From an uncultured Rikenellaceae bacterium (GTDB lineage: Bacteria > Bacteroidota > Bacteroidia > Bacteroidales > VadinHA17), in NCBI GenBank assembly GCA_964633505.1, contig CAZWHC010000001.1:596015-660014 (forward strand): 64,000 nucleotides of DNA, read 5' to 3'. This document shows, piece after piece, positions 34,803-60,110 of this stretch. Position 1 is the stretch's first letter. The number at the start of each line of letters is the position of its first letter. The translations under genes were made by a program, and so were the position numbers. Below the pieces are notes generated by a model. That model did no database searches, was not told the DNA's origin, and saw only the letters and a list, made by a program, of their open reading frames with translations.

Positions 34803-37169
34803 TTAATTTCCCAATTCCAGCTGATCCCTCACCAAATTATAATACGCTCCTTTCTTTTCAACAAGTTCCTTATGTGTTCCGGTTTCGGCTATTTCTCCTT
34901 TTTCAAGAACAACTATCTGATCAGCATTCTTTACCGTACTTAACCGGTGAGCTACAATCACGACTGTTTTTCCTTTGAAGAATGTGCCAAGATTATCCAT
35001 TATTGTCCTTTCGTTTGTTGCATCCAGAGCATTTGTAGCTTCGTCGAAAAAGATAAAATCAGGTTCCTTGTAGACTGCCCTTGCAATCAGAAGTCTTTGC
35101 TTCTGGCCGGTGCTCAGTCCCTGGCCATCGTTCCCGATCCTGGTATTGTATCCCAGAGGAAGACTGTCGATATACTCCTTTATATTTGCAGTCTCTGCCG
35201 CCCTGTCTGTCTTTTCCTTATCGGGCATATCATCGGCAAGACCAATATTACCTGCTATCGAATCGGCGAAGATATAGCCTTCCTGCATCACAACGCCGCA
35301 TCTCTTTCTCCATTCTGCCTGGCTGAACCTTTTAAGGGAAGTACCGTTGAGTGATATCTCTCCTTTTACAGGCTCATAGAATCCCAACATCAGTTTTAAA
35401 AGCGTTGTCTTGCCGCTTCCGCTGATACCGACAATTGCAGTGATCTTTTTCGCAGGAATTGTAAGTGAAACGTTGTTTAGCACTTTTTCGGAATGAGGTC
35501 CTTCGTACTGGAAAACCAGGTTCCTTATTTCAACATCCTTATCAGCAGGAATCTCTCTTATCTTATCATCCTCAGGTTTCTCCTCATCCTCCTTATTATG
35601 GATCTCGCCTAATCGTTCGAGACTTATCCTTGCATCCTGTGCTGCCTGGGTAAAGCCTATGAATTGCTGAATCGGAGCATTAAGCTGTCCGATAATGTAT
35701 TGTATTGCCATCATCATACCGAGGGTCATCTGGCCTTCTATTACAGCTTTAGCTGAAAGGAAGGAGATAAAGATATCCTTGGTTTGGTTTATCAGAACGG
35801 CTCCAAGCTGCTGGTTCTGGTTAAGCATCATGCTTTTCAGGCTCACCTTGAAAAGCTTTATCTGTATCCTTTCCCATTCCCAACGTTTCTGCTTCTCGCA
35901 GCTGTTGAGTTTTATCTCCTGCATACCTGTTACAAGCTGGACTATATTGCTCTGGTTGGCCGCGCTCTGCTGGAAACGTTTGTAGTCGAGCTCTCTCCTT
36001 CGTTTAAGAAAAAGCACCACCCAGCCGATGTACATCGCACTTCCCAGCATGAAAATACCAAGGATCCCAAGATTATATGTTGCCATTATTATCGTGTACA
36101 TAACCAGGGTAATAACAGCAAAAATGATACTTATCAGGGAATCAGTAAGAAAAGTCCTGATCCTGTTATGATCTCCTATTCTTTGCATAATATCGCCGAC
36201 AAGCTTCACATCGAAGAATGAGATCGGGAGCTTCATCAGCTTAATTAGGAAATCAGAAATGAGAGAAATGCTTACCCTGCTTGTTACGTGAAGGCTTATC
36301 CAGTTGCGCAGGAGCCCGTTTGCGGTCTGACTGAGTGTAAGTATAAGCTGGGCAACAAGTACCATCACCACAAATGAAATATTACTGTTTCCAATACCTG
36401 TATCGACTAGCGACTGTGTTAGAAAAGGGAATATAAGACTGATTATGCTGGCAGTGAGCATGCCCAGCATAAGTTGCAGGATGTATTTTGAATAAGGACG
36501 TATATAACCAAGAAGGTAAAGGAAGCTTAGTTTTTGTTTTTCCTCATCTTCCTGTTTATAGAACTCGGGAGTTGGTTCGAGCAATAAAGCTGTTCCCTCA
36601 TCCACCCCGTCGCTTTTGGTGCTGAACCAGCACTTACAAAACTCACGTTCGGTGTATTTAAGAAGACCGGCGGCGGGATCTGCAACATAAACAACATATT
36701 TTGAGTCTTTTTGCCTTGTGCGATTTTGCTCAGGGCTCAGGGCGCAGGGCTCAGAGGAAGAAGGCTCAGGACGCAGTGCGCTGGGCTCAGAGGGCTTTGA
36801 AATCTGCTCAAGGCTTTGGGGTTTTGCTCTGCGCTCTGTGCTCTGAGCTCTTTGCTCTGTGCTCTGCGCTCTGCGCTTCTTGATTTTATACACCACCACG
36901 AAGTGTCTCTGATTCCAGTGCACAATGCACGGTAGTGGCACTTCATCGCAGAGCTGTTCCCATGTGAGTCGGTAGCCTCTTGTACGGAAGCCTATGCTTT
37001 CGGCGGCATCACTGATGCCAAGCATTGAGACTCCCGATTTTGTTATGAATGATTTTGAACGGAGACATTGTAATTGATATGATTTTCCATAATATTTTGC
37101 AACCATGCGAAGGCATGATGGACCGCAATCCATAGAGTCGAGCTGCCTAAAAAGTGGAAACTCAGGCAT
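34803..37169 (-). CDS. C39 peptidase domain-containing ABC transporter (double-glycine leader processing/export)
   Basis: 788 aa. C39 catalytic Cys in 'QLDSMDCGPSCL' and His in 'QRHFVVVY'. Six TM segments. Walker A 'GISGSGKTT', signature 'LSTGQKQR', Walker B 'FIFFDEAT'. Confidence 0.9.
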   Translation of the reverse strand: MPEFPLFRQLDSMDCGPSCLRMVAKYYGKSYQLQCLRSKSFITKSGVSMLGISDAAESIGFRTRGYRLTWEQLCDEVPLPCIVHWNQRHFVVVYKIKKRRAQSTEQRAQSTERRAKPQSLEQISKPSEPSALRPEPSSSEPCALSPEQNRTRQKDSKYVVYVADPAAGLLKYTEREFCKCWFSTKSDGVDEGTALLLEPTPEFYKQEDEEKQKLSFLYLLGYIRPYSKYILQLMLGMLTASIISLIFPFLTQSLVDTGIGNSNISFVVMVLVAQLILTLSQTANGLLRNWISLHVTSRVSISLISDFLIKLMKLPISFFDVKLVGDIMQRIGDHNRIRTFLTDSLISIIFAVITLVMYTIIMATYNLGILGIFMLGSAMYIGWVVLFLKRRRELDYKRFQQSAANQSNIVQLVTGMQEIKLNSCEKQKRWEWERIQIKLFKVSLKSMMLNQNQQLGAVLINQTKDIFISFLSAKAVIEGQMTLGMMMAIQYIIGQLNAPIQQFIGFTQAAQDARISLERLGEIHNKEDEEKPEDDKIREIPADKDVEIRNLVFQYEGPHSEKVLNNVSLTIPAKKITAIVGISGSGKTTLLKLMLGFYEPVKGEISLNGTSLKRFSQAEWRKRCGVVMQEGYIFADSIAGNIGLADDMPDKEKTDRAAETANIKEYIDSLPLGYNTRIGNDGQGLSTGQKQRLLIARAVYKEPDFIFFDEATNALDATNERTIMDNLGTFFKGKTVVIVAHRLSTVKNADQIVVLEKGEIAETGTHKELVEKKGAYYNLVRDQLELGN
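36711..36875. repeat. in-frame low-complexity word-repeat insertion inside the C39 domain
   Basis: About 55 codons ('RAQSTEQRAQSTERRAKPQSLEQ...EPCALSPEQNRTRQ') lie between 'HFVVVYKIKKR' and 'DSKYVVYVADP'. The DNA consists of GCAGAGC/CAGGGC words. Confidence 0.8.
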
Positions 37170-38461: not shown

Positions 38462-39922
38462 GTCGATCCTTAGAAAATCAGAATTTATAATATTCTAACT
38501 GGATCTGATATTTCCAGACCAGTTTTTCAATAATTTCATTTAAGACACAGATAACCGATTCACGGATTTTCTGTAGCATCTTCATCATATTGAATGCTGC
38601 TCCAGCCAGAAGCGTGTTAATCATGTCACCTTCAACACCTTTGAGATAATTTCTGAGCATCCGGTGATCTTGTTTGATATGTCCAATGATTGGTTCTATC
38701 GATGCTCTTCTTCGGAACCGTTCTCTATCCATGGCTTTTTGATAAGCGGTTCTGCCTTTCCCAGAGCCTGGTATTTTTATATTGACTCCAAGAATGCTCT
38801 TTCGTCCCTTGCAACCTCTATCTACCAATGCTGTTTCAGGTAATTTGCCAATGAGATCTTCAACCTGCATAAGCTGAGGTTCAATAGCATGTCCGTCATA
38901 AATATTATCTTCAAATGCCAGAGCTCCAACCACTATTCCACTCTTTTTGGTCAAAGCAAAACAGCTTTTGTTCCCGAACTCGTATTTCTTATGTTCTTTA
39001 CCTTTTGAGATGCATTTTACTTCAGGTGCATGGAAGCTGTACAATTTATTTTTATCGTTCCTTTTCTGCCCCAGTACAAGAAGGTATAGCCACAACTGTT
39101 CATCATAACATGTTAACCTGTCACGCTCATCAAGATTACGTTCAACATCTCTCACCAGACGACCGGCAATGGTTTTAAGCTTTCGGGCTGCAGCATTTGC
39201 TTTCTTCATCCTTTTCGGATGTTCCCGGAACCTCTGGTCGATCATTAACTGTTTTACTATCCGGGTATAACGTTGGCGCAGCTTTATGTTCTCTTTTTCA
39301 GCTATTTTCAGGCATCCTTCTATTATCTTTCTATGAAGCTTAGAGTCGGTCGGGAATGTTATGTTTTTCTCCTGGACAGTGGTGTCAATCAGGATTTCTT
39401 TCTCATGGACTTCTTTGGATTCGAAGAGGCTTATGCTGAGTTTTAATATTTTCTGTGCTCCTTCTTCACCGATACGTTTACGGAAGTGTACAAAATCACT
39501 CGGATCATACGGCTTATCATATTGAAAGTAAACTTCTCCACATAAGTATTGCCAATACGGATTTTCAATCCATCGTTCAACAAATGTTTCATCTCCAAGA
39601 TTATACATCTGCTTCAGCAACATACTGCCAACCATCTTTCTTATTGGAACCGCTGGTCTTCCAAGCTCTGGGTAATAAACTGAGAACTCTTTCTCCACTT
39701 TTTCCCAGTCAATTTTCTGAGCCAGAATGACAAGTTCATGCTCCATATTGATGATATTTACTAAGGGAATGCGAAAGACATTCAGTTGCGGATTTCTTGG
39801 AATTTTTCCTTTCATTTTGCAAGGTTTTTATCGAATTTACTGATTACCTTGCAGATAATCAAAATATTTTATGAACATTAATTGTTAATAATCAACACGT
39901 TAACCACTTTTTAAGGATCGAC
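38462..39922 (-). mobile_element. IS5-family insertion sequence (1461 bp)
   Basis: Imperfect terminal inverted repeats GTCGATCCTTA(G/A)AAA. The direct repeat TACTTA lies at 38456-38461 and 39923-39928. There is a single transposase ORF. Confidence 0.85.
38478..39815 (-). CDS. IS5-family DDE transposase
   Basis: 445 aa. The N-terminal InsH/DUF772-like region ('ELGRPAVPIRKMVGSMLLKQMYNLGDE') and the C-terminal 'RASIEPIIGHIK' are typical of IS5/IS4-superfamily transposases. Confidence 0.85.
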   Translation of the reverse strand: MKGKIPRNPQLNVFRIPLVNIINMEHELVILAQKIDWEKVEKEFSVYYPELGRPAVPIRKMVGSMLLKQMYNLGDETFVERWIENPYWQYLCGEVYFQYDKPYDPSDFVHFRKRIGEEGAQKILKLSISLFESKEVHEKEILIDTTVQEKNITFPTDSKLHRKIIEGCLKIAEKENIKLRQRYTRIVKQLMIDQRFREHPKRMKKANAAARKLKTIAGRLVRDVERNLDERDRLTCYDEQLWLYLLVLGQKRNDKNKLYSFHAPEVKCISKGKEHKKYEFGNKSCFALTKKSGIVVGALAFEDNIYDGHAIEPQLMQVEDLIGKLPETALVDRGCKGRKSILGVNIKIPGSGKGRTAYQKAMDRERFRRRASIEPIIGHIKQDHRMLRNYLKGVEGDMINTLLAGAAFNMMKMLQKIRESVICVLNEIIEKLVWKYQIQLEYYKF

Positions 39923-39994: not shown

Positions 39995-40025
39995 AAGAGG
40001 CTAAATATTATGGATTTAGCCTCTT
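39995..40025 (-). terminator. hairpin downstream of precursor 1 (attenuator/terminator)
   Basis: Perfect 12-bp stem AAGAGGCTAAAT/ATTTAGCCTCTT with a 7-nt loop. Confidence 0.55.
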
Positions 40026-40096
40026 TTTGTACATAGTTAAATCATTACAGAATCAATCCTGTTTGAGTGTATTATCTTAAATTCAAGATAATATTT

Positions 40097-40306
40097 TCAA
40101 ATAATGCATTGCCATACACCCCAACCACCCCATTTATTATAACAATCAGTATTACAATCGTATGGGGTTGATTGAATATACTCTGTTCCTCCTCCTACAA
40201 TATGGCATTCACAACATGTAGAATCATATCCTCCTTTTAAGGTAACTAATTCTTCATGGTTCATTAATTTTTCAGAATTGATCTGCAATTTATTAAGCTT
40301 TTTCAT
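40097..40306 (-). CDS. double-glycine-leader, Cys-rich precursor peptide 1
   Basis: 69 aa. The 26-aa leader is 'MKKLNKLQINSEKLMNHEELVTLKGG'. The 43-aa core has 6 Cys and starts 'YD'. Confidence 0.85.
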   Translation of the reverse strand: MKKLNKLQINSEKLMNHEELVTLKGGYDSTCCECHIVGGGTEYIQSTPYDCNTDCYNKWGGWGVWQCII

Positions 40307-40347
40307 GATATCACATTTTTAAATCTAAGAAACTGTTTACAATATTC

Positions 40348-40487
40348 CTGATTTATCATTTCACAGGCCGCAACCGGAATTACGGATAATTATTATCTTC
40401 GCATGGGTAAACCCCCTTTCTTTTTTGGAAAGGTCTGGGCAGGGACTTGTTAATCACAAATAAAGAACATAATGAAAGTCCCTGCCA
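40348..40487 (-). promoter_or_regulatory. conserved structured 5' leader element, copy 1
   Basis: Box TGATTTATCATTTCACAGG, then ACCCATGCGAAGATAATAAT, then hairpin 1 CCTTTC/GAAAGG, then hairpin 2 GGCAGGGACTT/AAGTCCCTGCC (40438-40448 with 40476-40486). Confidence 0.6.
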
Positions 40488-40580
40488 TTTCCTTAAATCT
40501 TAACATCATTAGTAATTTTACAATTTTCAAAGACTTGTTATCTGTTATTGTTGCAATGGTAGTTCACTTATTTACCTGTT

Positions 40581-41867
40581 TTAATTATGCTTGTTGCTTC
40601 TTTCAAATAATCCTTTTATTGCACTCTGTTTTAAGGTAATTTTCATTATTATTGGATTACTGAATTCTGTGATAGAACTTAAGACCGATTCCATGGAACG
40701 TAAATATTCAGAAGAGTTTTTATTTTTTTCAGTTGCTCTACTGTAAGCCTCTTTAAAATTTTTAGCTTCTATCACTGAATAGAGGCACTCATCGGAATAG
40801 AAAATATAACCTTCAGATTTATTGAATACAGGAAAATCAACAAGATGGTCAAGATCATTTTTCAGGTAAACCTGACTTCCATAAGAATTAAAATCAGGGA
40901 TGGTTGACAATTCAACTTTACGAGACCCTTTGTCGTATATTACAAATATTTTAGGTCTTTTATATGAACTAAGTATTAGAAATAAAAAGTCTTTTGATTC
41001 GGCAAGTGAATGAACCCAGAATCCTTCAGGAGGTCCTGCTCCAATGTTAAACATTCCTTTATCTCTCCATGTTTCCCATTCAAGTTTGTGAGCTATATTT
41101 AAAATAAACCTTGGCCTGACTTCCAACTTCCTGTTAAGAATAAATACAGTATCACAGAATCTCTCTTTGAACATTAAGGCTGTATCAAATACCTGGTAAC
41201 AGTAATCCCATGAAATAATAGATGGCTGTTTTGATTTTTGATCGTTTGTGTATTGATATTTATTCTTAAATATTGGAATTATTGAATCTGTTTTTAAATT
41301 GAATAATGAATATATATGTTCTACTCCTGGTCTTTGAGGTAATGCAACAAAAAGGTTATTTTCAAAATATTCAATTTTCCAGGGGGGAAGAGATTCAACG
41401 GGATTTATCAGTTCTTTTATTACAGATAAATAGTCGCCATTGGTTTTATAGATTTTAATTGTCTTGTCCCTGTCAAACACAAATACCCTTTTATTCTCTT
41501 CATCAATTGCAGAACAAACAGGAAGAGTTTCGCCTGGTCCACGGCCTGCACTATAGACTACATTGATAAACTTTCCGTTGGTGCTAAATCTGAGTAAGTC
41601 GAGCCCGTTTTCAATATAAATAAAATCGTTTGTTATTTTGAAATGATATATATAGTCAAGCAAAATACTGTCAGTTGTTTGTAAAGGGATATATTCAATC
41701 TTGATGGCAATCTTCGATAGCCGGATAGAGTCTGTCCCAGCTTTATCAGAATCAACGAAAATAGTCATCGGGAACACATCTTTTAAATTTGAATTTATTT
41801 CCTTACAGGAATTGAAACCAAGACACAGATAAATTGCCAAAGAATAAGTTATTATCTTAGTTTTCAT
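40581..41867 (-). CDS. lipoprotein, 6-bladed beta-propeller family (paralog 4)
   Basis: Lipobox 'GFNSC'. Motifs 'IEYIPLQT' and 'GRGPGE'. The tail is 'EFSNPIIMKITLK' plus an 18-aa extension. Confidence 0.7.
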   Translation of the reverse strand: MKTKIITYSLAIYLCLGFNSCKEINSNLKDVFPMTIFVDSDKAGTDSIRLSKIAIKIEYIPLQTTDSILLDYIYHFKITNDFIYIENGLDLLRFSTNGKFINVVYSAGRGPGETLPVCSAIDEENKRVFVFDRDKTIKIYKTNGDYLSVIKELINPVESLPPWKIEYFENNLFVALPQRPGVEHIYSLFNLKTDSIIPIFKNKYQYTNDQKSKQPSIISWDYCYQVFDTALMFKERFCDTVFILNRKLEVRPRFILNIAHKLEWETWRDKGMFNIGAGPPEGFWVHSLAESKDFLFLILSSYKRPKIFVIYDKGSRKVELSTIPDFNSYGSQVYLKNDLDHLVDFPVFNKSEGYIFYSDECLYSVIEAKNFKEAYSRATEKNKNSSEYLRSMESVLSSITEFSNPIIMKITLKQSAIKGLFERSNKHN

Positions 41868-41914
41868 GAAGACTTTTGTATTAAACTTACATATTTTAAA
41901 TGTACATTATGTAA

Positions 41915-41943
41915 AATGCTGCAGTTTCTTCAACTGCAGCATT
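41915..41943 (-). terminator. hairpin downstream of precursor 2 (attenuator/terminator)
   Basis: Perfect 12-bp stem AATGCTGCAGTT/AACTGCAGCATT with a 5-nt loop, between the peptide stop (41963) and the propeller start (41867). Confidence 0.55.
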
Positions 41944-41962
41944 ATTAATAGCTATAATTCTA

Positions 41963-42160
41963 TCACGGACTTGTACATATTTTACTTTCCGGAAAGCCGG
42001 GAACATCACTGCAACGTTGGCAAGGGAAATAACATTGAGACTCTAATGTGCAAAAATATCCACATGGTGGATCATAATCATACCCTCCTCTTAACTGTAT
42101 CAATTCTCTTTCGTTTAATGAAATTCCAGATATAAGTTTTATTTTATTAAGTTTCTTCAT
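41963..42160 (-). CDS. double-glycine-leader, Cys-rich precursor peptide 2
   Basis: 65 aa. The 26-aa leader is 'MKKLNKIKLISGISLNERELIQLRGG'. The 39-aa core has 6 Cys and starts 'YD'. Confidence 0.85.
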   Translation of the reverse strand: MKKLNKIKLISGISLNERELIQLRGGYDYDPPCGYFCTLESQCYFPCQRCSDVPGFPESKICTSP

Positions 42161-42197
42161 AATAAGTAAGATTTATTTCGATAACTAATAAGTTCAT

Positions 42198-42373
42198 CTG
42201 ATTTATCATTTCACAGGCTGAAACCGTAGTTTCAGAAAATTATTACCTTCGCATGGGTATACCTCCTTTCTGTTATAGAAAGGTCCGGGCAGGAAGTGGC
42301 ACAGAGCTCAGGGTTCCCACCTTCACTAGGGTTCCGGTGGGCGAGGCAGAGCAAAGGGAAAAACTTCCTGCCC
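42198..42373 (-). promoter_or_regulatory. conserved structured 5' leader element, copy 2
   Basis: Same boxes as copy 1. Hairpin 1 is CCTTTCT/AGAAAGG (42265-42283). Hairpin 2 is GGGCAGGAAGT/ACTTCCTGCCC (42287-42297 with 42363-42373). Confidence 0.6.
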
Positions 42374-42433
42374 TTCTCTTTCAAATTTATTAAAAATGAA
42401 TCTTATAATACTAAAGAACTTACTTATTGTTAA

Positions 42434-42757
42434 TTAATTAACAGCATTTACTTTAAAACTTACTTCCTCTTTCCCTTTAAAAATCTCTCTGAAATTCCTT
42501 AAATCGTCAATTTCATATTGGGCCGGGAGTTTGTAACCGTTAATGAAAAAAGTGGGAGTGCCGAGAACATTGCACTCTTTAAAAAGACGTCCGGTTTCGT
42601 CACTGATTCTGCCTGAGCTATCACTTTCCTCAGGAATACATAGGCCTTCTGTGATCTTTGTCCTGGAATAGGGATCCGCGTTAAACCATTGCTCCAGTAA
42701 TTCTGATGACTCCGCTTCTCTACCTTGTCTGTAACAGTTAAAAAGGATTGTGAGCAT
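42434..42757 (-). pseudogene. 3' fragment of a VKOR/thioredoxin-fusion paralog (thioredoxin C-terminal part only)
   Basis: The 107-aa ORF aligns along its whole length to the last ~107 aa of 44701..46326 ('LEQWFNADPYSRTKITEGLCIPE', 'GTPTFFINGYKLPAQYEIDDLR'). The CxxC motif and everything upstream are missing. Confidence 0.8.
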
Positions 42758-42789
42758 TTTGTTATATGATGAAAGTAGAACAAGATTTA

Positions 42790-42906
42790 TAAATATTTAA
42801 TCCATTTCATTGCATGGTTGATAGACCATAAAACATGGCAATCCTGAATAGGTAGTATAACGGACCACAGTCCATGTAATCGAGCTGTTTGATCAAATTC
42901 GTACAT
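42790..42906 (-). pseudogene. frameshifted remnant of a C39-ABC transporter 5' end
   Basis: The minus strand reads 'MYEF' and then, in the +1 frame, 'KQLDYMDCGPLYYLFRIAMFYG'. Compare 'MPEFPLFRQLDSMDCGPSCLRMVAKYYG' of 34803..37169. Confidence 0.65.
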
Positions 42907-42911
42907 GATTA

Positions 42912-44111
42912 CTATTTTTTCAAACTTACAAGCACCAAAATCGGATTATCCGTCTCTTTTATACTATCTGCCAGAACTTCAAGCTCTTTTTTCTTTTCTA
43001 TGTATTTAGGTTGGGAGTTCTTAAAATCTTCAGAAGCTACATATTCTTTTAGATTTTTTGCATCAATCCAACTGATAACAGTTTTGTTATCTTTAATTGT
43101 TTTAGGTAAAAAGGAAGGCCCACCATCCAAGTCATTAATTATACCCTGGTCCGCATCAATAAAAGCCTGAAATTCTGTTGTTTTAGATCCAATAAATCCA
43201 TATAGTATATTTTTGGTTCCAGGTTTAAAACTATAGGTGTATTCATAATAGACAAAATCACCAAATTCGAACAAGTGTGTTGGCCGGATGAAATTTTCCG
43301 CGAGGTAGGATAAATCAAACTGTGCACGCGCTTCGGGAGTTATCAATCTGTCCCCGGTCGCCAGGACAATGTGAGGTTTAAATAGCATTTTGTCAAAGCT
43401 ATAAATAGTATCAGAGTAGACTTCCTTTATAAAAAGTCTGTTATTAAATTTATAAAATAGATTCTCTCTACCGAACACTGTCGGAATCCCTTTATAGGGT
43501 TTAAAAGGATAGTTGTTTGGGAAAGCTTTTAGCACCAGCCCAAGAGTGTCAATTACAATAAAGCTATTTTCAGAGTTGCCCTGAAGATTCTCGATGTAAC
43601 ATATTATTTTTTCTTCTGATAATCTGAATTGAACAGGTCCCTTGAATGGAAACTTAAATGACCTGATGAATTTCCCGTCCTCTGAATAAAGATTAAATTT
43701 TTCCTGAAAGCCTGAAACCAAATACAGATAACCTGTTTTGTCAACATCTATATCATGAGCTACTTCATATTCCTCAGGTCCTCTCCCTACTGTTCCTATC
43801 CTCGAAACGAACGATCCATCAGTTTGAAATAGCAGAATATCATTAAACTGTTTAATTATAAAGAAGTTATTATCAGCAATAAACCGGTGTGTAACTGCTC
43901 TGATATCAAAATGTCCAATCGAATTTTCTTCGCATGTCTCCAAAGGAATATATTCAATATCAATAAAACCCAAATCAGAGAGCTTTAAAGAGGAAATGTC
44001 GGCCCTCTTTGTCAAATCAAATGTTTTAATTTGACTTTGGTCCAACCTAATAGAATTTTGGCAACTTTCTATAATTGCAAAAACTATAAGAAATCTTATG
44101 ATAAGTTTCAT
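42912..44111 (-). CDS. lipoprotein, 6-bladed beta-propeller family (paralog 5)
   Basis: Lipobox-like 'IIESC'. Motifs 'IEYIPLET' and 'GRGPEEY' with tail 'ETDNPILVLVSLKK'. Confidence 0.7.
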   Translation of the reverse strand: MKLIIRFLIVFAIIESCQNSIRLDQSQIKTFDLTKRADISSLKLSDLGFIDIEYIPLETCEENSIGHFDIRAVTHRFIADNNFFIIKQFNDILLFQTDGSFVSRIGTVGRGPEEYEVAHDIDVDKTGYLYLVSGFQEKFNLYSEDGKFIRSFKFPFKGPVQFRLSEEKIICYIENLQGNSENSFIVIDTLGLVLKAFPNNYPFKPYKGIPTVFGRENLFYKFNNRLFIKEVYSDTIYSFDKMLFKPHIVLATGDRLITPEARAQFDLSYLAENFIRPTHLFEFGDFVYYEYTYSFKPGTKNILYGFIGSKTTEFQAFIDADQGIINDLDGGPSFLPKTIKDNKTVISWIDAKNLKEYVASEDFKNSQPKYIEKKKELEVLADSIKETDNPILVLVSLKK

Positions 44112-44164
44112 TTAAATGATTTTTGGTCTGATAAAGCACAGTTTGTATTTCACTTAAGAATTAA

Positions 44165-44186
44165 GAAGGGAACCAAAGTTCCCTTC
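44165..44186 (-). terminator. hairpin downstream of precursor 3 (attenuator/terminator)
   Basis: Perfect 9-bp stem GAAGGGAAC/GTTCCCTTC with a 4-nt loop, between the peptide stop (44200) and the propeller start (44111). Confidence 0.5.
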
Positions 44187-44199
44187 GTTAGATCGTTTG

Positions 44200-44427
44200 T
44201 TAGCCGACACAGATCTCCTCATTATGATTTGGGCAGTAATAATCACAGAACTGCTGACAACTACCATACCCTGTGCCATAACAAGTATCTACCATGCTCG
44301 AAGTGCAGGTACTTCCGTCTATCTTACATGCACAATATCCTCCATCATATCCACCTCTAAGAGTCATCAGCTCTTCCGCTTTTAATAGCTTCTCATAATT
44401 GATCTGAAGTCTGTTTAATTTTTTCAT
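44200..44427 (-). CDS. double-glycine-leader, Cys-rich precursor peptide 3
   Basis: The start is taken at the internal 'MKKLNRLQINYEKLLKAEELMTLRGG' (26-aa leader). The track ORF extends to 44478. The 49-aa core has 8 Cys and starts 'YD'. Confidence 0.8.
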   Translation of the reverse strand: MKKLNRLQINYEKLLKAEELMTLRGGYDGGYCACKIDGSTCTSSMVDTCYGTGYGSCQQFCDYYCPNHNEEICVG

Positions 44428-44502
44428 AATAAAACATTTTAAGGTTTTTACAATCATAAATCCTTTGCAGCTCGCCAAGCTGAATAAATTATAAATATCA
44501 TT

Positions 44503-44640
44503 GGCGTTTACCTCCTTTCTGTTATAGAAAGGTCCAGGCCATTAGCGCAGGGCAAGGGGCGAAGGGCGTAGGACATGATCGTAATTTGGGTTGTTCCGCT
44601 CCCAGCCCCAAGCTCCCTGCTCCCTGCTTTTAAGCTGACC
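44503..44640 (-). promoter_or_regulatory. conserved structured 5' leader element, copy 3 (partly diverged)
   Basis: Hairpin 1 is identical to copy 2 (ACCTCCTTTCTGTTATAGAAAGGTCC). The second hairpin is replaced by GC-rich words (GCAGGGCAAGGGG...CCCCAAGCTCCCTGC). Confidence 0.5.
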
Positions 44641-44700
44641 TTCTCTTTCAAATTTATTAGAAATGAATTCATTAATACTAAAGAATTTATTTATTGTTAA

Positions 44701-46326
44701 TTAATTAACAACCTCTGCTTTTATACTTCTTTCCTCTTTTTCCTTAAAAATCTCCTTGAAATACCTTAGATCATCAATCTCATATTGAGCCGGGAGTTTG
44801 TAACCGTTAATGAAAAAAGTCGGTGTGCCCATTACATTACACTCCTTAAAAAGTCTTCCGTTTTCTTTATTAATTTCAGCTGAAATATCATCAACTTCAG
44901 GAATACAAAGGCCTTCTGTGATCTTTGTCCTGGAATAGGGATCCGCGTTAAACCATTGCTCCAGCAGTTTTATTGATTCCAATTCTCTACCTTGCCTGTT
45001 ATTGTTAAAAAGTGTAGCGAGCATTTTGTTGTCGGATGTTACAAGAAGAAGATTTACAAGTATATCTTCATTTTCATTGAGCATGCTAAGGATTTTCTCA
45101 AAAGCCCTTGCACAATGTGAACAGTGCAGACTGAGAAATGCTGTTATCCTGATCGAAGCATCCCTGTTACCGAAAATCAGACTGCTCTCCGATAATGGAA
45201 TTTCATAGTGAGGCTGATTCATCAGAAGCATCCTGAGAATGTCAGGATTCTTCTTAAACCCGAGATATTTATAATAATGCATTTCACCCGACATTTGCTC
45301 CCTCCGGAATAATATATACAGGGTATATATTATTGTTATTACAAGCAAAGTAAGTACAAGCCTTGTAACAGAATCAAAAGCAAAGGTCAGCTGTGATAAC
45401 TGAGGTAACAATAAAATGAATTCTATAATCAGGATAAGTTGAACACCAAGACACATTGGACACCACTTATTCAGAACAACTCCCTGGTAATAAATTGAGA
45501 AGAGGGGATAGGGTACTGAAAGGGAGGCAAGTATTGCCATCAAAGAAAGACCTTCTCTCCCAGGGGATTGTAAAATAAATAATAAACCTACTGTAAAATA
45601 TATAAATCCGACGTCGGCCCATCCGAACCACCCGAATACCTTTGATGCTTTATCATGAAGAACTGTATTGCAGTTTGTTGCCTTGTTCAGATGACAAAGC
45701 TTGTCAGTAATGGAAAGATGAACTTCAAATTCGTGCAGGATCAGCAGAACAGAAAGTACAATGCCGGCAATTTTTGTAAAAACCAGCGGCAGGATTACCT
45801 TATTGTAAATAATCCCGCCTACGGCAAAATTATTGTAATACAGAGAAATGATAAAAATCAAAACAGCAATTAAAGCCAGAGGCATTACTGATTTATTTAT
45901 CAGTTCATTCTTTATTTTGGTCTGATAATCCTTTTCTCCTGATCGCTGATCCGGGTTAAGCAGTATTACTGCGCCGGAACAGCTCTCAAGAAACTCTTTC
46001 CTGACGGTTTTTCTTTTTTCATTGTATGATGTAAAATATGTAAACTGCTCCTTCCCCGTCTCGGTTACAAATCCTATCATGCCGCCGCCTCTGCTGAAAT
46101 GGACGATATACGGCGCTTGAAGATCCTCCAGTTCTTTTAATTCATACCTGAGAGGATAGTTTTCAATTTTCCATTCATTGAGGGTATCGCAGATACTTTT
46201 AAAAGACGGGTAATCAGGATGTGATTTAAGCGCTTCCTTTACGGTACCTTTTACGACATGTAATCCATAATGTTTTACGGCACGTTGAATGATGCCGACA
46301 GTATTATCTTCCCTGGCCCGTTTCAT
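44701..46326 (-). CDS. C39-like domain / vitamin K epoxide reductase (VKOR) / thioredoxin-fold fusion protein
   Basis: 541 aa. The N-terminal ~130 aa are C39-like but lack the catalytic Cys. The TM core has loop Cys 'KLCHLNKATNC' and the membrane CxxC 'WCPMC'. The C-terminal Trx/DsbA-like domain has CxxC 'HCSHC'. Confidence 0.75.
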   Translation of the reverse strand: MKRAREDNTVGIIQRAVKHYGLHVVKGTVKEALKSHPDYPSFKSICDTLNEWKIENYPLRYELKELEDLQAPYIVHFSRGGGMIGFVTETGKEQFTYFTSYNEKRKTVRKEFLESCSGAVILLNPDQRSGEKDYQTKIKNELINKSVMPLALIAVLIFIISLYYNNFAVGGIIYNKVILPLVFTKIAGIVLSVLLILHEFEVHLSITDKLCHLNKATNCNTVLHDKASKVFGWFGWADVGFIYFTVGLLFILQSPGREGLSLMAILASLSVPYPLFSIYYQGVVLNKWCPMCLGVQLILIIEFILLLPQLSQLTFAFDSVTRLVLTLLVITIIYTLYILFRREQMSGEMHYYKYLGFKKNPDILRMLLMNQPHYEIPLSESSLIFGNRDASIRITAFLSLHCSHCARAFEKILSMLNENEDILVNLLLVTSDNKMLATLFNNNRQGRELESIKLLEQWFNADPYSRTKITEGLCIPEVDDISAEINKENGRLFKECNVMGTPTFFINGYKLPAQYEIDDLRYFKEIFKEKEERSIKAEVVN

Positions 46327-51779: not shown

Positions 51780-52240
51780 ATAATACCAAGGGAGGAAGTT
51801 TTGAACTCCCCCCTTTCTGTCAGGAAAAGGTCCGGACCACTGGCCCAGGGCGAGGGGCGGAGGTCAGGCTTCGTAAGCCGTAGCCTTCTTCGGAATCCGA
51901 AGCATTTGCGAAGGATTCGGCGAAGGCTTGGGGCGGGAAGCAGAGAGGAGTGCAAAGATACGGGAGATATGAGATATGAGATTTGAGTAGTGAGTAGTGA
52001 GGAAAGAAGAATGAGGAGTCAGGTGTCAGGTGTCAGGAATGTGGATTTTTGATTTCTCTGCGTAACTCTGCGATCCCGAAGCATCGGGACTGCGAAAGTC
52101 TGCGAGATAGGTTTTTGTGTTTCAACGGTACAATGTTTCAGGGTTTTACTGTTTTTAGGACAAGCACCCAGTTTTGCTACAGTATTTCTTCGGAAACTGA
52201 AGCTTTAATGATGGGATTCAGTGAGGATTAGCCCCGGCTT
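51780..52240. repeat. mosaic word-repeat region, including a degenerate leader-element copy and a ~190-bp diverged copy of 50255-50445
   Basis: 51808-51860 resembles hairpin 1 plus GGTCCGG of the leader element. 52045-52235 parallels 50255-50445 block by block. Confidence 0.75.
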
Positions 52241-56586: not shown

Positions 56587-56943
56587 CTAAAGCCTCAGTT
56601 TCCGAAGAAAGCTGCGAAGTGCAAAGCTTGCACGACCTCTTTCTCTCCGTTTCTTAATCCTGTACACCACAACGAAGTGTCTCTGGTTCCGTTCCGCCAC
56701 GCACGGCAGTGGCACCTTGTCGCAAAGTTGTTCCCAGACAAGGCGGTAGCCGCGGGTACGGAAACCAATGCTTTCGGCGGCATCGGTGATACCAAGCATT
56801 GAGACGCCTGATTTTGTTATGAATGATCTGGAACGGAGTGATTGTAATGTGTAAGATTTCCCATAATACCTGGCTATCATACGAAGACTGGATGGGCCGC
56901 AATCCATAGAATCCAGCTGCTTAAAATATGGGAATGCAGGCAT
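56587..56943 (-). pseudogene. truncated C39-ABC transporter paralog (C39 N-terminal ~100 aa only)
   Basis: The first 100 aa are roughly 85% identical by eye to 34803..37169. After 'VVVYRIKKRR' the ORF runs into word-repeat sequence and stops. Confidence 0.8.
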
Positions 56944-59367: not shown

Positions 59368-59635
59368 GGCTTTTATCAGTACATCAAAAGTATTTTAGAG
59401 ACTGAATCAAAAGTGGCCATTGTGATCCGCGTATCCTTTTAATCATTTGTGAATCCGATTGTTATCTTTGTGGATCACAAGATTTAACATCAATTACAAA
59501 AGTAAACAAAAGATGGTGCCAAGATACTCCAAGGGCTTATTATACAGTCTCATTTTAAAATAATCAACAACTCCAAAGGCCAGCCCCACCTCCACCAGGT
59601 AATTCGCACGAACTAATGCAATCTTCTTTAGATGT

Positions 59636-59700
59636 CGCTACACCTCCTTTCTTTTACGAAAGGTCCGGGCAGAGGGCATGTAAGGAACACAGACAAAGCT
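59636..59700 (-). promoter_or_regulatory. conserved leader element, orphan copy
   Basis: ACCTCCTTTC-TTTTAC-GAAAGGTCCGGGCAGA...TCTGCCC, with both hairpins retained. No intact precursor lies downstream. Confidence 0.5.
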
Positions 59701-59800
59701 TTCTGCCCTTTCTTTGTTTTTACTATTTTTCATTTATCATCTGCATGTCTAAAGTTTATAACCGTGAACATTATTATGCTTTCATAGTATAAGTTGAAAA

Positions 59801-60110
59801 TTTTTCACAGATCAAAATTGTCCTGATATTAAAGTTCAACAATTATATTGATATGATTGCAGGAAAAATCCGGGAATAAGTTGACAGAAGTTGCCAGATA
59901 TTGTCAGAAGCTGCCAGAAGTTGACAGAAGTGGACACCGTCCTCTTTTTGAGCGATGATTTCAGGCGCTTTGGGATTTTAAGATCCGCTCAGACTTTGCA
60001 AGCCGTGGCCTTCTTTGGAATCCGAAGCTTTTGTGAAGGATTCGGCATAGGCTTAGGGCAGAGGGGAGGAGAGAAAGATCTGGCCCATGACGGATGAGCT
60101 TTCAGCCCCC
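59801..60110. repeat. duplicate of the 49541-49700 region plus mosaic word repeats
   Basis: About 165 bp are roughly 85% identical to the region upstream of the LanC-like operon, including the 10-bp array and a remnant of the HTH gene 3' end. GAATCCGAAGC/GAAGGATTC words follow. Confidence 0.8.

Follow-up and report, generated by a model that had tools for sequence, protein, structure and literature searches.

A Modular Leader with Covarying Helices Precedes Double-Glycine, Cysteine-Rich Peptide Genes in Bacteroidales and Is Probably a Cis-Acting Part of Their mRNAs

Results

Precursor Genes and Leader Copies in the Window

The stretch analyzed here, called the window below, comprises 64,000 nucleotides (64 kb) of contig CAZWHC010000001.1 from an uncultured Rikenellaceae bacterium (GenBank assembly GCA_964633505.1, positions 596,015 to 660,014), and the element under study is a structured leader upstream of small peptide genes. 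The minus strand of the window carries three small open reading frames (ORFs) that encode double-glycine (GG)-leader, cysteine-rich peptides: precursor 1 (40097-40306, 69 aa), precursor 2 (41963-42160, 65 aa; MKKLNKIKLISGISLNERELIQLRGG followed by YDYDPPCGYFC...) and precursor 3 (44200-44427, 75 aa, ATG at 44427). The leader peptide MKKLNKLQIN..EEL..L(K/R)GG is common to all three, and a typical start is MKKLNKLQINSEKLMNHEELVTLKGG followed by YDSTCC.... With the NCBIfam model TIGR04149 (GG_sam_targ_CFB), precursor 2 scored 29.9 bits, above the cut-off of 25, and precursors 1 and 3 scored 18.4 and 16.8 bits, respectively, both under it. The locus is a multi-precursor locus for bacteriocins or ribosomally synthesized and post-translationally modified peptides (RiPPs) of a Bacteroidales-type organism.

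The original prediction had noted near-equal gaps upstream of the precursors, and the coordinates bear this out: 274 nt (40307-40580), 273 nt (42161-42433) and 273 nt (44428-44700). All three gaps hold a 5' module, in which a long GC-rich hairpin (H1) is followed by a second hairpin (H2, CCTTTC-N6-8-GAAAGG) running into GAAAGGRGGT, which resembles a Shine-Dalgarno (SD) motif. The pattern GACCTTTC-N7-GAAAGGRGGT is located at 40411-40435, 42261-42285 and 44510-44534; at up to three mismatches it has four matches in the window, against 0.16 expected. A covariance model was run over the 64 kb. Exactly four significant copies were detected, all on the minus strand, and no plus-strand match in the window fell below E = 0.1. 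The leader features given below are all on the minus strand.

Copy 1, which has a 3' module of class A (see below), was matched by the model at 40345-40494 (121 bits, E = 4e-27). From its sequence and fold, H1 lies at 40438-40486, H2 at 40415-40433, the SD-like sequence GAAAGGGGGT at 40411-40420, a conserved box at 40393-40404, hairpin H3 at 40368-40385 and hairpin H4 at 40347-40367.

Copy 2 (model match at 42193-42328, E = 1e-23) has a Bacteroidota-type -7 box, TAAATTTG (42382-42389), just upstream of H1. According to the minimum free energy (MFE) fold and the covariation, its H1 (42287-42373) is an 11-bp stem with a 65-nt GC-rich interior, in which a mini-hairpin is nested. H2, CCTTTC-tataaca-GAAAGG, was located by pattern and fold at 42265-42283, and the SD-like decamer GAAAGGAGGT (42261-42270), a complement of the 16S rRNA 3' tail, shares its 5' six nucleotides with the 3' arm of H2. 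The conserved box ATGCGAAGGTAA (42243-42254), previously described as an MRR-stop mini-ORF, is followed by H3 (CTGAAAC-TACG-GTTTCAG, 42218-42235; 7-bp stem, UNCG-type tetraloop) and H4 (CCTG-TGAAATGATAAAT-CAG(A), 42197-42217; 4-bp stem, conserved 13-nt loop).

Copy 3 extends over 44437-44656, with a model match at 44437-44548 (E = 4e-5). It has a -7 box (44649-44656), a long imperfect H1 (about 44547-44627), H2 (44514-44532) and the SD-like sequence (44510-44519). Its 3' hairpin (CGCCAA, 44501-44506; TTGGCG, 44473-44478) differs from those of copies 1 and 2. Without the mini-ORF and without H4, this 3' module is a fourth type beside classes A, B and C; the CGCC...GGCG of its hairpin is retained in one homologue (L163_1531).

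For copies 1 and 2, the predicted anatomy proved largely correct. A leader had been predicted before every precursor. In the window this is true for the 5' module, and the 3' elements (the mini-ORF and a terminal box) are confined to copies 1 and 2; elsewhere, about 85% of the precursors carry the leader. The distal stem of H1 differs and still pairs, as was claimed: GGCAGGGACTT/AAGTCCCTGCC in copy 1 (40438-40486) versus GGGCAGGAAGT/ACTTCCTGCCC in copy 2 (42287-42373). The perfect 11-mer AGAAAGGAGGT, complementary to the 16S rRNA end, is found in copies 2 and 3 and in an orphan copy, whereas copy 1 reads AGAAAGGGGGT. The sequence ATG-CGA-AG(A/G)-TAA is indeed present at 40393-40404 and 42243-42254 in copies 1 and 2. 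The terminal box CCTGTGAAATGATAAATCAG exists at 40348-40367 and 42198-42217; it is absent from copy 3, and it forms the hairpin H4 rather than a linear box.

Homologues and Linkage to Precursors

A first sample was obtained by an exact DNA-pattern scan with one genome per species, which returned 119 loci. About 45 of them were true copies, in metagenome-assembled genomes (MAGs) named Bacteroidales, Rikenellaceae, Bacteroidia or 'Bacteroidetes'; the remainder were noise, consisting of Collinsella coding sequences and of spirochaete 16S 3' ends in reverse complement. Almost every true copy is followed by a GG-leader cysteine-rich ORF, which begins 98-109 nt after H2. Since H2 was fixed by construction in this sample, a second sample was drawn by the precursor peptide alone, using a 10-sequence peptide alignment, and comprised 80 metagenome loci. 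On these loci the covariance model R1 gave 106 matches at E <= 0.01, and all 106 were on the precursor strand. Among the precursors with enough upstream sequence, 77 of 91 have a match ending within 260 nt upstream, and, conversely, 86 of 96 matches have a precursor within 260 nt downstream.

The precursors without a leader are L075_6358, L076_6487, L186_2211, L191_3000 and L194_2937, some of which lie beside seemingly unrelated or inserted DNA; leaderless precursors would serve as natural controls for expression studies. Typical leader-plus-precursor cassettes were also seen in contigs binned to a Methanomethylovorans MAG (L056, L088) and an Ignavibacteriaceae MAG (L034). Mis-binning is a more likely reason for these placements than lateral transfer. 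Source environments of the cassettes include anaerobic digesters and sediments, and the 100%-identical contig L120 belongs to the Ga0116170 series.

The leader is not catalogued in Rfam 15. At the gathering threshold, only a tRNA was detected in the whole window; in the region 40000-44800 no match at E <= 10 fell inside any leader, and at E <= 1 seven homologous loci, which contain many leader copies, yielded no relevant match. In the literature on TIGR04149, bacteroidetocin and Bacteroidales RNA motifs, no paper that describes this leader was found. The leader is thus an uncatalogued, new family within a known kind, the structured mRNA leader.

Compensatory Changes in the Helices

In the class A alignment (35 sequences), 93.0% of the cells were paired, compared with 87.3% after shuffling and 37-57% in slid registers. 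Fourteen pairs had changed on both sides (six in H1, five in H3 and three in H4), which was reached in none of 500 shuffles; this corresponds to five of the seven pairs of H3 and three of the four pairs of H4. RNAalifold independently predicts H1 and H3. For the distal five base pairs of H1, 51 distinct arm pairs were 74% paired versus 58% in shuffles, a difference of 7.5 standard deviations. The class B alignment (26 sequences) was 91% paired, and 11 pairs had changed on both sides (six in Pd and Pb, two in Pc and three in Pa; none of 500 shuffles). Moreover, H3, Pb and Pd are rich in G.U pairs on the sense strand (for example, 18 GU at columns 95-104 and 16 UG at columns 54-97). Thus, H1, H3 and H4 covary beyond shuffles. 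The general claim of the original prediction, a conserved, strand-specific, RNA-like structured leader tied to the precursors, is upheld by compensatory changes across many species.

Several other origins of the conserved block were rejected. The H2 loop length (N6, N7 or N8), the length of the H1 interior, which spans 43-150 nt, and the class B indel ATGAAATCC/ATGAATCC, which shifts the frame, are all incompatible with a coding sequence. ORFs passing through the leader (42232-42384, 44508-44672 and 42253-42393) are not conserved on either strand and are ruled out by indels. As a coding remnant, the SD-like box could be read as AAA-GGA-GGT (K-G-G, the double glycine); in intact leaders, this is contradicted by a stop codon two codons upstream and by frame-breaking lengths. 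A mobile repeat (a miniature inverted-repeat transposable element, a repetitive extragenic palindrome or an integron attC site) was rejected on the strict orientation and gene association seen in the peptide-selected loci.

The Promoter Box and the Constant 5' Module

The profile upstream of H1 reads T-A-A-A-T-T-T-G-AAAGAGAAG-GGCAGG and contains TAnnTTTG, which we take to be the -7 promoter consensus of Bacteroidota. An exact TAnnTTTG occurs at a single fixed site 5' of H1 in 20 of 82 homologues, and at least five of its six positions match in 30 of 82. Within the leader it was found in 1 of 82 and in the last 60 nt before the ATG in none of the 82. These positions suggest that transcription starts a few nucleotides before H1. 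A sigma-70 promoter scan gave 20 matches versus 20.2 in shuffles; the sigma-70 model is not applicable to Bacteroidota.

H1 is an 11-bp stem of the form GGGCAGG+4/4+CCTGCCC, in which the outermost four to five pairs on the distal side vary together (AAGT/ACTT, GGGT/GCCC, AAGC/GCTT, GGAT/ATCC and GGGCGGG/CCCGCCC). The interior, about 20-130 nt, lacks conservation; that of copy 1 is AT-rich, and elsewhere it contains CTGAGCY heptad-like repeats or nested mini-hairpins. In many homologues (for example, L048, L076, L151 and L169), three to four heptad-like YCTGNGC repeats (CCTGTGCT CTGAGCC CTGAGCT CTGTGCC) make up the interior, and these are not present in H1 of copy 1. The heptads could be a protein-binding platform or slippage-prone DNA.

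H2 (CCUUUC/GAAAGG) is invariant, with 98-99.5% pairing (99.5% across the 35 class A homologues), and is therefore uninformative for covariation. Its loop has six, seven or eight nucleotides and tolerates a 55-nt hairpin insertion in three independent homologues (L089, L128 and L183), and variants such as ACCUUUCU/AGAGAGGU stay paired.

The matches of the pattern scan to reverse-complemented spirochaete 16S 3' ends confirm that GAAAGGAGGT is a complement of the 16S tail. Among 47 peptide-selected copies, the decamer is GAAAGGAGGT in 20 and the G.U variant GAAAGGGGGT in 11; in the other 16 it is degraded, for example to GGATGT, GGGTTT or GTAGGT. That such a sequence is conspicuous in this genome was rightly noted: only 2 of the 41 ORF starts in the window have an SD-like tetramer, and all three perfect GAAAGGAGGT 10-mers of the 64 kb fall within leader copies. 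In copies 1 and 2, the box precedes the precursor ATG by 101-105 nt; in copy 3 the distance is 83 nt. H2 buries half of it, and a second register, ACCUUU/GGAGGU, could bury the whole box. An upstream GAAAG might pair with CUUUC, which would extend H1 and compete with H2; this depends on the transcription start, and the -7 box would put GAAAG mostly outside the transcript.

Interchangeable 3' Modules and the Start Region

Behind this one 5' module, at least three unrelated 3' modules were observed. Class A consists of H3, a 7-bp stem usually closed by a UNCG tetraloop, and H4, a 4-bp stem with the conserved 13-nt loop UGAAAUGAUAAAU. In class B, about one third of the copies, H3 and H4 are replaced by a long hairpin with the helices Pd (GUUUUAAC/GUUGAAAC), Pb (CGGAU/AUCCG) and Pc; its loop GCCAG likely pairs with an upstream CUGGC to form a pseudoknot (Pa). 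Class C retains the H4 loop on a different stem, GCCAT/ATGGC.

From the 3' module to the precursor ATG there are 35-45 nt, which are A/U-rich and unpaired in the MFE folds of copies 1-3, and the ATG has no SD. Neither start-codon sequestration nor a pairing of the SD-like box with the start region was found in these folds. Two further pairings were considered. A closing helix around H3 and H4 (Px, UUUU/GAAA) reaches 84% pairing, hardly covaries and may reflect composition. Many copies, though not all (..ACAAAAATG in others), would allow AUGAUA of the H4 loop to pair with UAUYAUG at the start codon; this pairing is AU-only and was not adopted.

The Conserved Box Is Not a Conserved Peptide

The conserved box RYRCRAAGATAA follows the SD-like box, and in class A it reads ATG-CGA-AGA-TAA. 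Most class A copies in the alignment keep the ATG 7-8 nt after the SD-like box, so that GGAGG-N7-ATG opens a three-codon, non-conserved ORF, whereas the precursor ATG itself has no SD. In homologues, the mini-ORF reads M-stop, MQR-stop, MRS-stop, MRK-stop or runs through, and its ATG is replaced by GTG, ATA or TTG; throughout class B the codon is TGG. Since class B has no ATG, the mini-ORF is conserved as a nucleotide sequence and not as a peptide. The proposal that the MRR mini-ORF is a functional unit was thus not borne out. The proposed attenuator fared no better: no hairpin followed by a T-run was found between H2 and the precursor ATG, and there is no conserved upstream ORF. The leader may instead be a processing site or a riboregulator, the other two roles that had been suggested.

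Orphan and Degenerate Copies and Nested Inserts

The predicted orphan copy near 59636-59700 proved to be a significant model match at 59627-59715 (E = 6e-8), in which a 5' module (H1, H2 and GAAAGGAGGT) is present. Over positions 59560-59715 of the minus strand, the frame after GAAAGGAGGT reads KKGGVATSKEDCISSCELPGGGGAGLWSC up to a stop codon (ending ..GGVATSKEDCISSCELPGGGGAGLWSC) without a start codon, and it aligns with the C-terminal half of the family core peptides (..DCxSxC....GxWxC). This orphan is a decayed cassette, in which the leader is fused directly to a remnant of the core-peptide C-terminus. It looks like the result of a deletion joining the SD-like box to the middle of the core, possibly through microhomology with the K-G-G codons AAAGGAGGT; the K-G-G reading rejected for intact leaders does explain this fused copy. 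The degenerate copy suspected at 51808-51860 is less certain. H2 and its flank (GACCTTTTCCTGACAGAAAGGGGGG, 51799-51890) match the pattern with two mismatches, but the model match is weak (E = 0.13).

Several GC-rich elements were seen in or near leader copies. A GC-rich palindromic element (..GCCGAATCCTTCGCAAATGCTTCGGATTCCGAAGAAGGCTACGGC..) occurs twice on the minus strand, at 51860-51990 and 59985-60075, with about 88% identity between the two over about 85 nt, each just upstream of the degenerate or the orphan leader copy; the low-complexity runs tgacacctgacacc, cactactcactactc and atctcatatctcatatctc precede the copy at 51860-51990. A mini-hairpin, CCCACCGGAACCCTAGTGAAGGTGGG, lies inside the H1 interior of copy 2 (42316-42345) and of two homologues (L079 and L197). 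The 55-nt hairpin in the H2 loops mentioned above, GGCCGGCTCCTCCCTAAAATTGCCCACCGGGCAATTTCTAAACGGTCGGCC, is also inserted in the H1 region of L103. These nested GC-rich hairpins behave like miniature insertion elements.

Neighboring Genes

The locus further contains a 541-aa fusion protein with VKOR, C39-like and thioredoxin-like parts (44701-46326, minus strand), a C39-ABC exporter (34803-37169), a LanC-like protein, an HlyD protein, a TIGR04157-like glycosyltransferase (289 bits versus a cut-off of 400) and many DUF5128/DUF4934 six-bladed propellers. No regulator gene was recognized among the neighbors. The ORF at 42434-42757 (minus strand, 107 aa) is a second copy of the C-terminal end of the VKOR-fusion gene (541 aa); thus, a unit of VKOR 3' end, leader, precursor and propeller has been segmentally duplicated, and leader copies 2 and 3, which share their upstream flank, are not independent. 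A terminator-like hairpin 3' of precursor 3 was counted toward a monocistronic unit.

A complete IS5-family transposase gene (38478-39815, minus strand, 464 bits) is inserted directly after precursor 1 and separates it from the next propeller gene. A stand-alone C39 peptidase domain of 118 aa (56587-56943, minus strand) is located amid propeller genes, apart from the exporter, and may be a truncated exporter.

Discussion

A Cis-Acting Leader of the Precursor mRNAs

We regard it as very likely that the element is a transcribed, functional cis-leader RNA. In a fuller form, which we hold with less confidence but still consider probable, it is a modular 5' untranslated region (UTR) of about 190-270 nt that stabilizes or co-regulates the precursor mRNAs, and it belongs to a leader family that is, as part of the same explanation, probably dedicated to GG-leader cysteine-rich precursors (TIGR04149-like or bacteroidetocin-like) in Bacteroidales. 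Transcription would begin a few nucleotides after the -7 box that abuts H1. The 5'-proximal H1, whose interior would be dispensable, would, together with H2, most likely protect the 5' end and set the half-life of the mRNA, the hairpin acting as a cap-like block. The SD-like GAAAGGRGGU that continues the 3' arm of H2 might serve as a dock or decoy of the kind known as STAB-SD. The single-stranded box RCRAAGAUAA and one interchangeable 3' module would follow. The conserved unpaired box, the H4 loop UGAAAUGAUAAAU or the class B pseudoknot may present nucleotides that are read by a shared trans-factor, a protein or a small RNA (sRNA), and all paralogous precursors would thereby be controlled together. 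The precursor would then be initiated from the SD-less, A/U-rich, unstructured start region 35-45 nt downstream of the 3' module. That stabilization is the main role of the leader is a tentative idea, for which we see somewhat less than an even chance.

Several observations weigh against this explanation. The ribosomes of Bacteroidia are reportedly SD-blind (PMC7797042, PMC9976891, PMC13000453), and their 30S subunits sequester the anti-SD (PMC7797042), which weakens the case for a STAB-SD-like docking of 30S. The SD core is degraded (GGATG, GGGTT, GTAGG) in about 25-30% of the unbiased copies. Neither H2 nor the SD-like box shows covariation, and the pairing of H2 rests on complementarity, loop variability and tolerated loop insertions. 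In H1, 34 A.C mismatches stand against 26 G.U pairs without sense-strand asymmetry, and H1 alone therefore does not fix the strand. Because the aligned sequences are related and some are paralogues, the shuffle controls overstate significance. Only about one quarter of the copies match the -7 consensus exactly, and it is this consensus rather than transcripts that places the transcription start. Finally, about 15% of the precursors are without a leader.

Alternative Explanations

The block might act only as DNA, being promoter or operator DNA together with the terminator or 3' hairpin of the upstream gene, kept alike by duplication and gene conversion, as a 'constant region' through which variable core cassettes could recombine. 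It would suit this idea that copies 2 and 3 lie in a segmental duplication, that the upstream genes have no terminator other than H1, about 70-95 nt past their stop codons, and that H1 lacks a sense-strand G.U excess. The orphan at 59627-59715 resembles a deletion or recombination product at the GAAAGGAGGT box, and the dyad-rich CTGAGC repeats of the H1 interiors could be operator-like. However, no T-run follows H1, and the -7 box 5' of H1 puts H1 within the transcript. The block is conserved in many species and environments, and four to six helices show compensatory changes. Read on the opposite strand, the G.U pairs of H3, Pb and Pd would become A.C mismatches, and the UNCG tetraloops, the pseudoknot and the conserved loop of a hairpin are features of RNA. 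We therefore consider an explanation without RNA function unlikely. An independent trans-acting sRNA gene that merely lies 5' of each precursor is a good deal less probable still. Such a gene would account for the promoter-like box, the compact helices and the existence of orphan copies without a precursor, but no terminator separates the 3' module from the precursor ATG, and the precursor, with no exact promoter box in the last 60 nt before its ATG, would lack a promoter of its own. The spacing to the ATG is fixed at 98-109 nt, and the orphan is a decayed cassette.

The SD-like box invites a translational explanation, in which the box and the class A ATG 7 nt further on recruit ribosomes with an exposed anti-SD. 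The leader would then sense the state of the ribosomes, and a ribosome on the three-codon ORF or a box-bound 30S would switch H2 open and control stability or downstream initiation. SD sequences are otherwise avoided in the window (2 of 41 ORF starts), and yet 20 of the 47 unbiased copies carry the 10-nt perfect 16S-tail complement GAAAGGAGGT and 11 carry GAAAGGGGGT; most aligned class A copies keep the ATG at 7-8 nt, and the box is half-buried by H2 or, in the ACCUUU/GGAGGU register, could be buried entirely. There is also a precedent, as Flavobacterium rpsU is translated via its SD by bS21-free ribosomes (PMC9976891, PMC13000453). In contrast, class B has TGG in place of the ATG in about one third of the copies, variants of class A carry ATA, TTG or GTG or stop at once, and the SD core is degraded in about a quarter of the copies. 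At least about 100 nt lie between the box and the precursor start, with which no pairing was found, and ordinary Bacteroidia ribosomes do not recognize the SD (PMC7797042). On balance, an SD-dependent device seems improbable. A related idea, that H2 (the anti-SD-like CCUUUC with the extended SD GAAAGGAGGU) is a dock or sensor for ribosomes with an exposed 16S tail, such as bS21-free 30S, is doubtful to a similar or slightly greater degree, given that about one quarter of the copies have degraded cores and that class B lacks the ATG. If it were true, peptide-toxin production would be coupled to ribosome composition or growth state, and the leader would be the second natural SD-anti-SD circuit in Bacteroidia after rpsU, on a whole paralogous gene family.

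A metabolite or ion riboswitch, or a leader-peptide attenuator controlling premature termination, might be expected of a long, conserved, structured leader with invariant unpaired nucleotides. We give this the least credit. The leader contains no terminator-like hairpin with a T-run, the start codon is free, the mini-ORF required by an attenuator is not conserved, and no Rfam match was obtained. At least three unrelated, interchangeable 3' modules are hard to square with one ligand pocket, and with no expression platform a classical riboswitch is unlikely.

Significance

If the leader is a functional RNA, it provides a sequence-and-structure signature about 100 nt 5' of hypervariable peptide genes. 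The core peptides are too diverse for homology search, and such a leader would help to find, and would help the cell to co-regulate, the peptide toxins and RiPPs of Bacteroidales. We know of nothing reported on the regulation of these multi-precursor loci, for which the leader is an entry point. A near-perfect 10-nt SD complement in an SD-less genome also bears on why Bacteroidia keep their anti-SD, and this question becomes testable on a natural mRNA other than rpsU, with wild type and bS21-free ribosomes.

Comparison with Known Systems

The leaders of Escherichia coli ompA and Bacillus subtilis aprE are 5'-terminal stem-loop stabilizers. As in these, which are found on abundant mRNAs, a strong hairpin lies a few nucleotides from the (here presumed) 5' end of a long leader. 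H1 differs in having the conserved base GGGCAGG/CCTGCCC and in hosting variable insertions.

The SD-like box recalls STAB-SD, the 5' mRNA stabilizer of Bacillus thuringiensis cry3A (Agaisse and Lereclus, 1996; reviewed in PMC4113751), which acts on the mRNA of a very highly expressed secreted toxin. In both cases, a 16S-complementary SD-like box in a long 5' UTR does not initiate the downstream gene; it is more than 100 nt from the real start in cry3A, and the leader copies carry their remote box 83-105 nt from the ATG in what is presumably a 5' UTR. However, 30S binding blocks RNase J1 in Firmicutes, whereas the ribosomes of Bacteroidia are SD-blind (PMC7797042). Moreover, the box of the leader is half-paired in an invariant hairpin within a much larger covarying leader, and about one quarter of the copies have a degraded core.

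Within the Bacteroidota, a parallel is rpsU, which encodes bS21. Its SD, read by bS21-free ribosomes, is the sole strong one described in Flavobacterium johnsoniae, and the extended SD of Flavobacteriales rpsU serves autoregulation through such ribosomes (PMC9976891, PMC13000453). The leader shares the rare extended SD, and class A adds an ATG at optimal spacing. In rpsU, the SD serves the regulated ORF itself, whereas the leader box precedes at best a three-codon ORF that class B lacks, and the regulated gene, which has no SD, begins about 100 nt downstream of it. The host order also differs, being the Bacteroidales, and the host is uncultured.

The leader is not matched in Rfam and is set apart from the orphan cis-regulatory RNA motifs (Weinberg et al., 2010, PMC2864571; Rfam) by its tie to RiPP or bacteriocin precursors and its interchangeable 3' domains. 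With these motifs, it shares covariation, a fixed orientation and gene association, and a mostly metagenomic occurrence.

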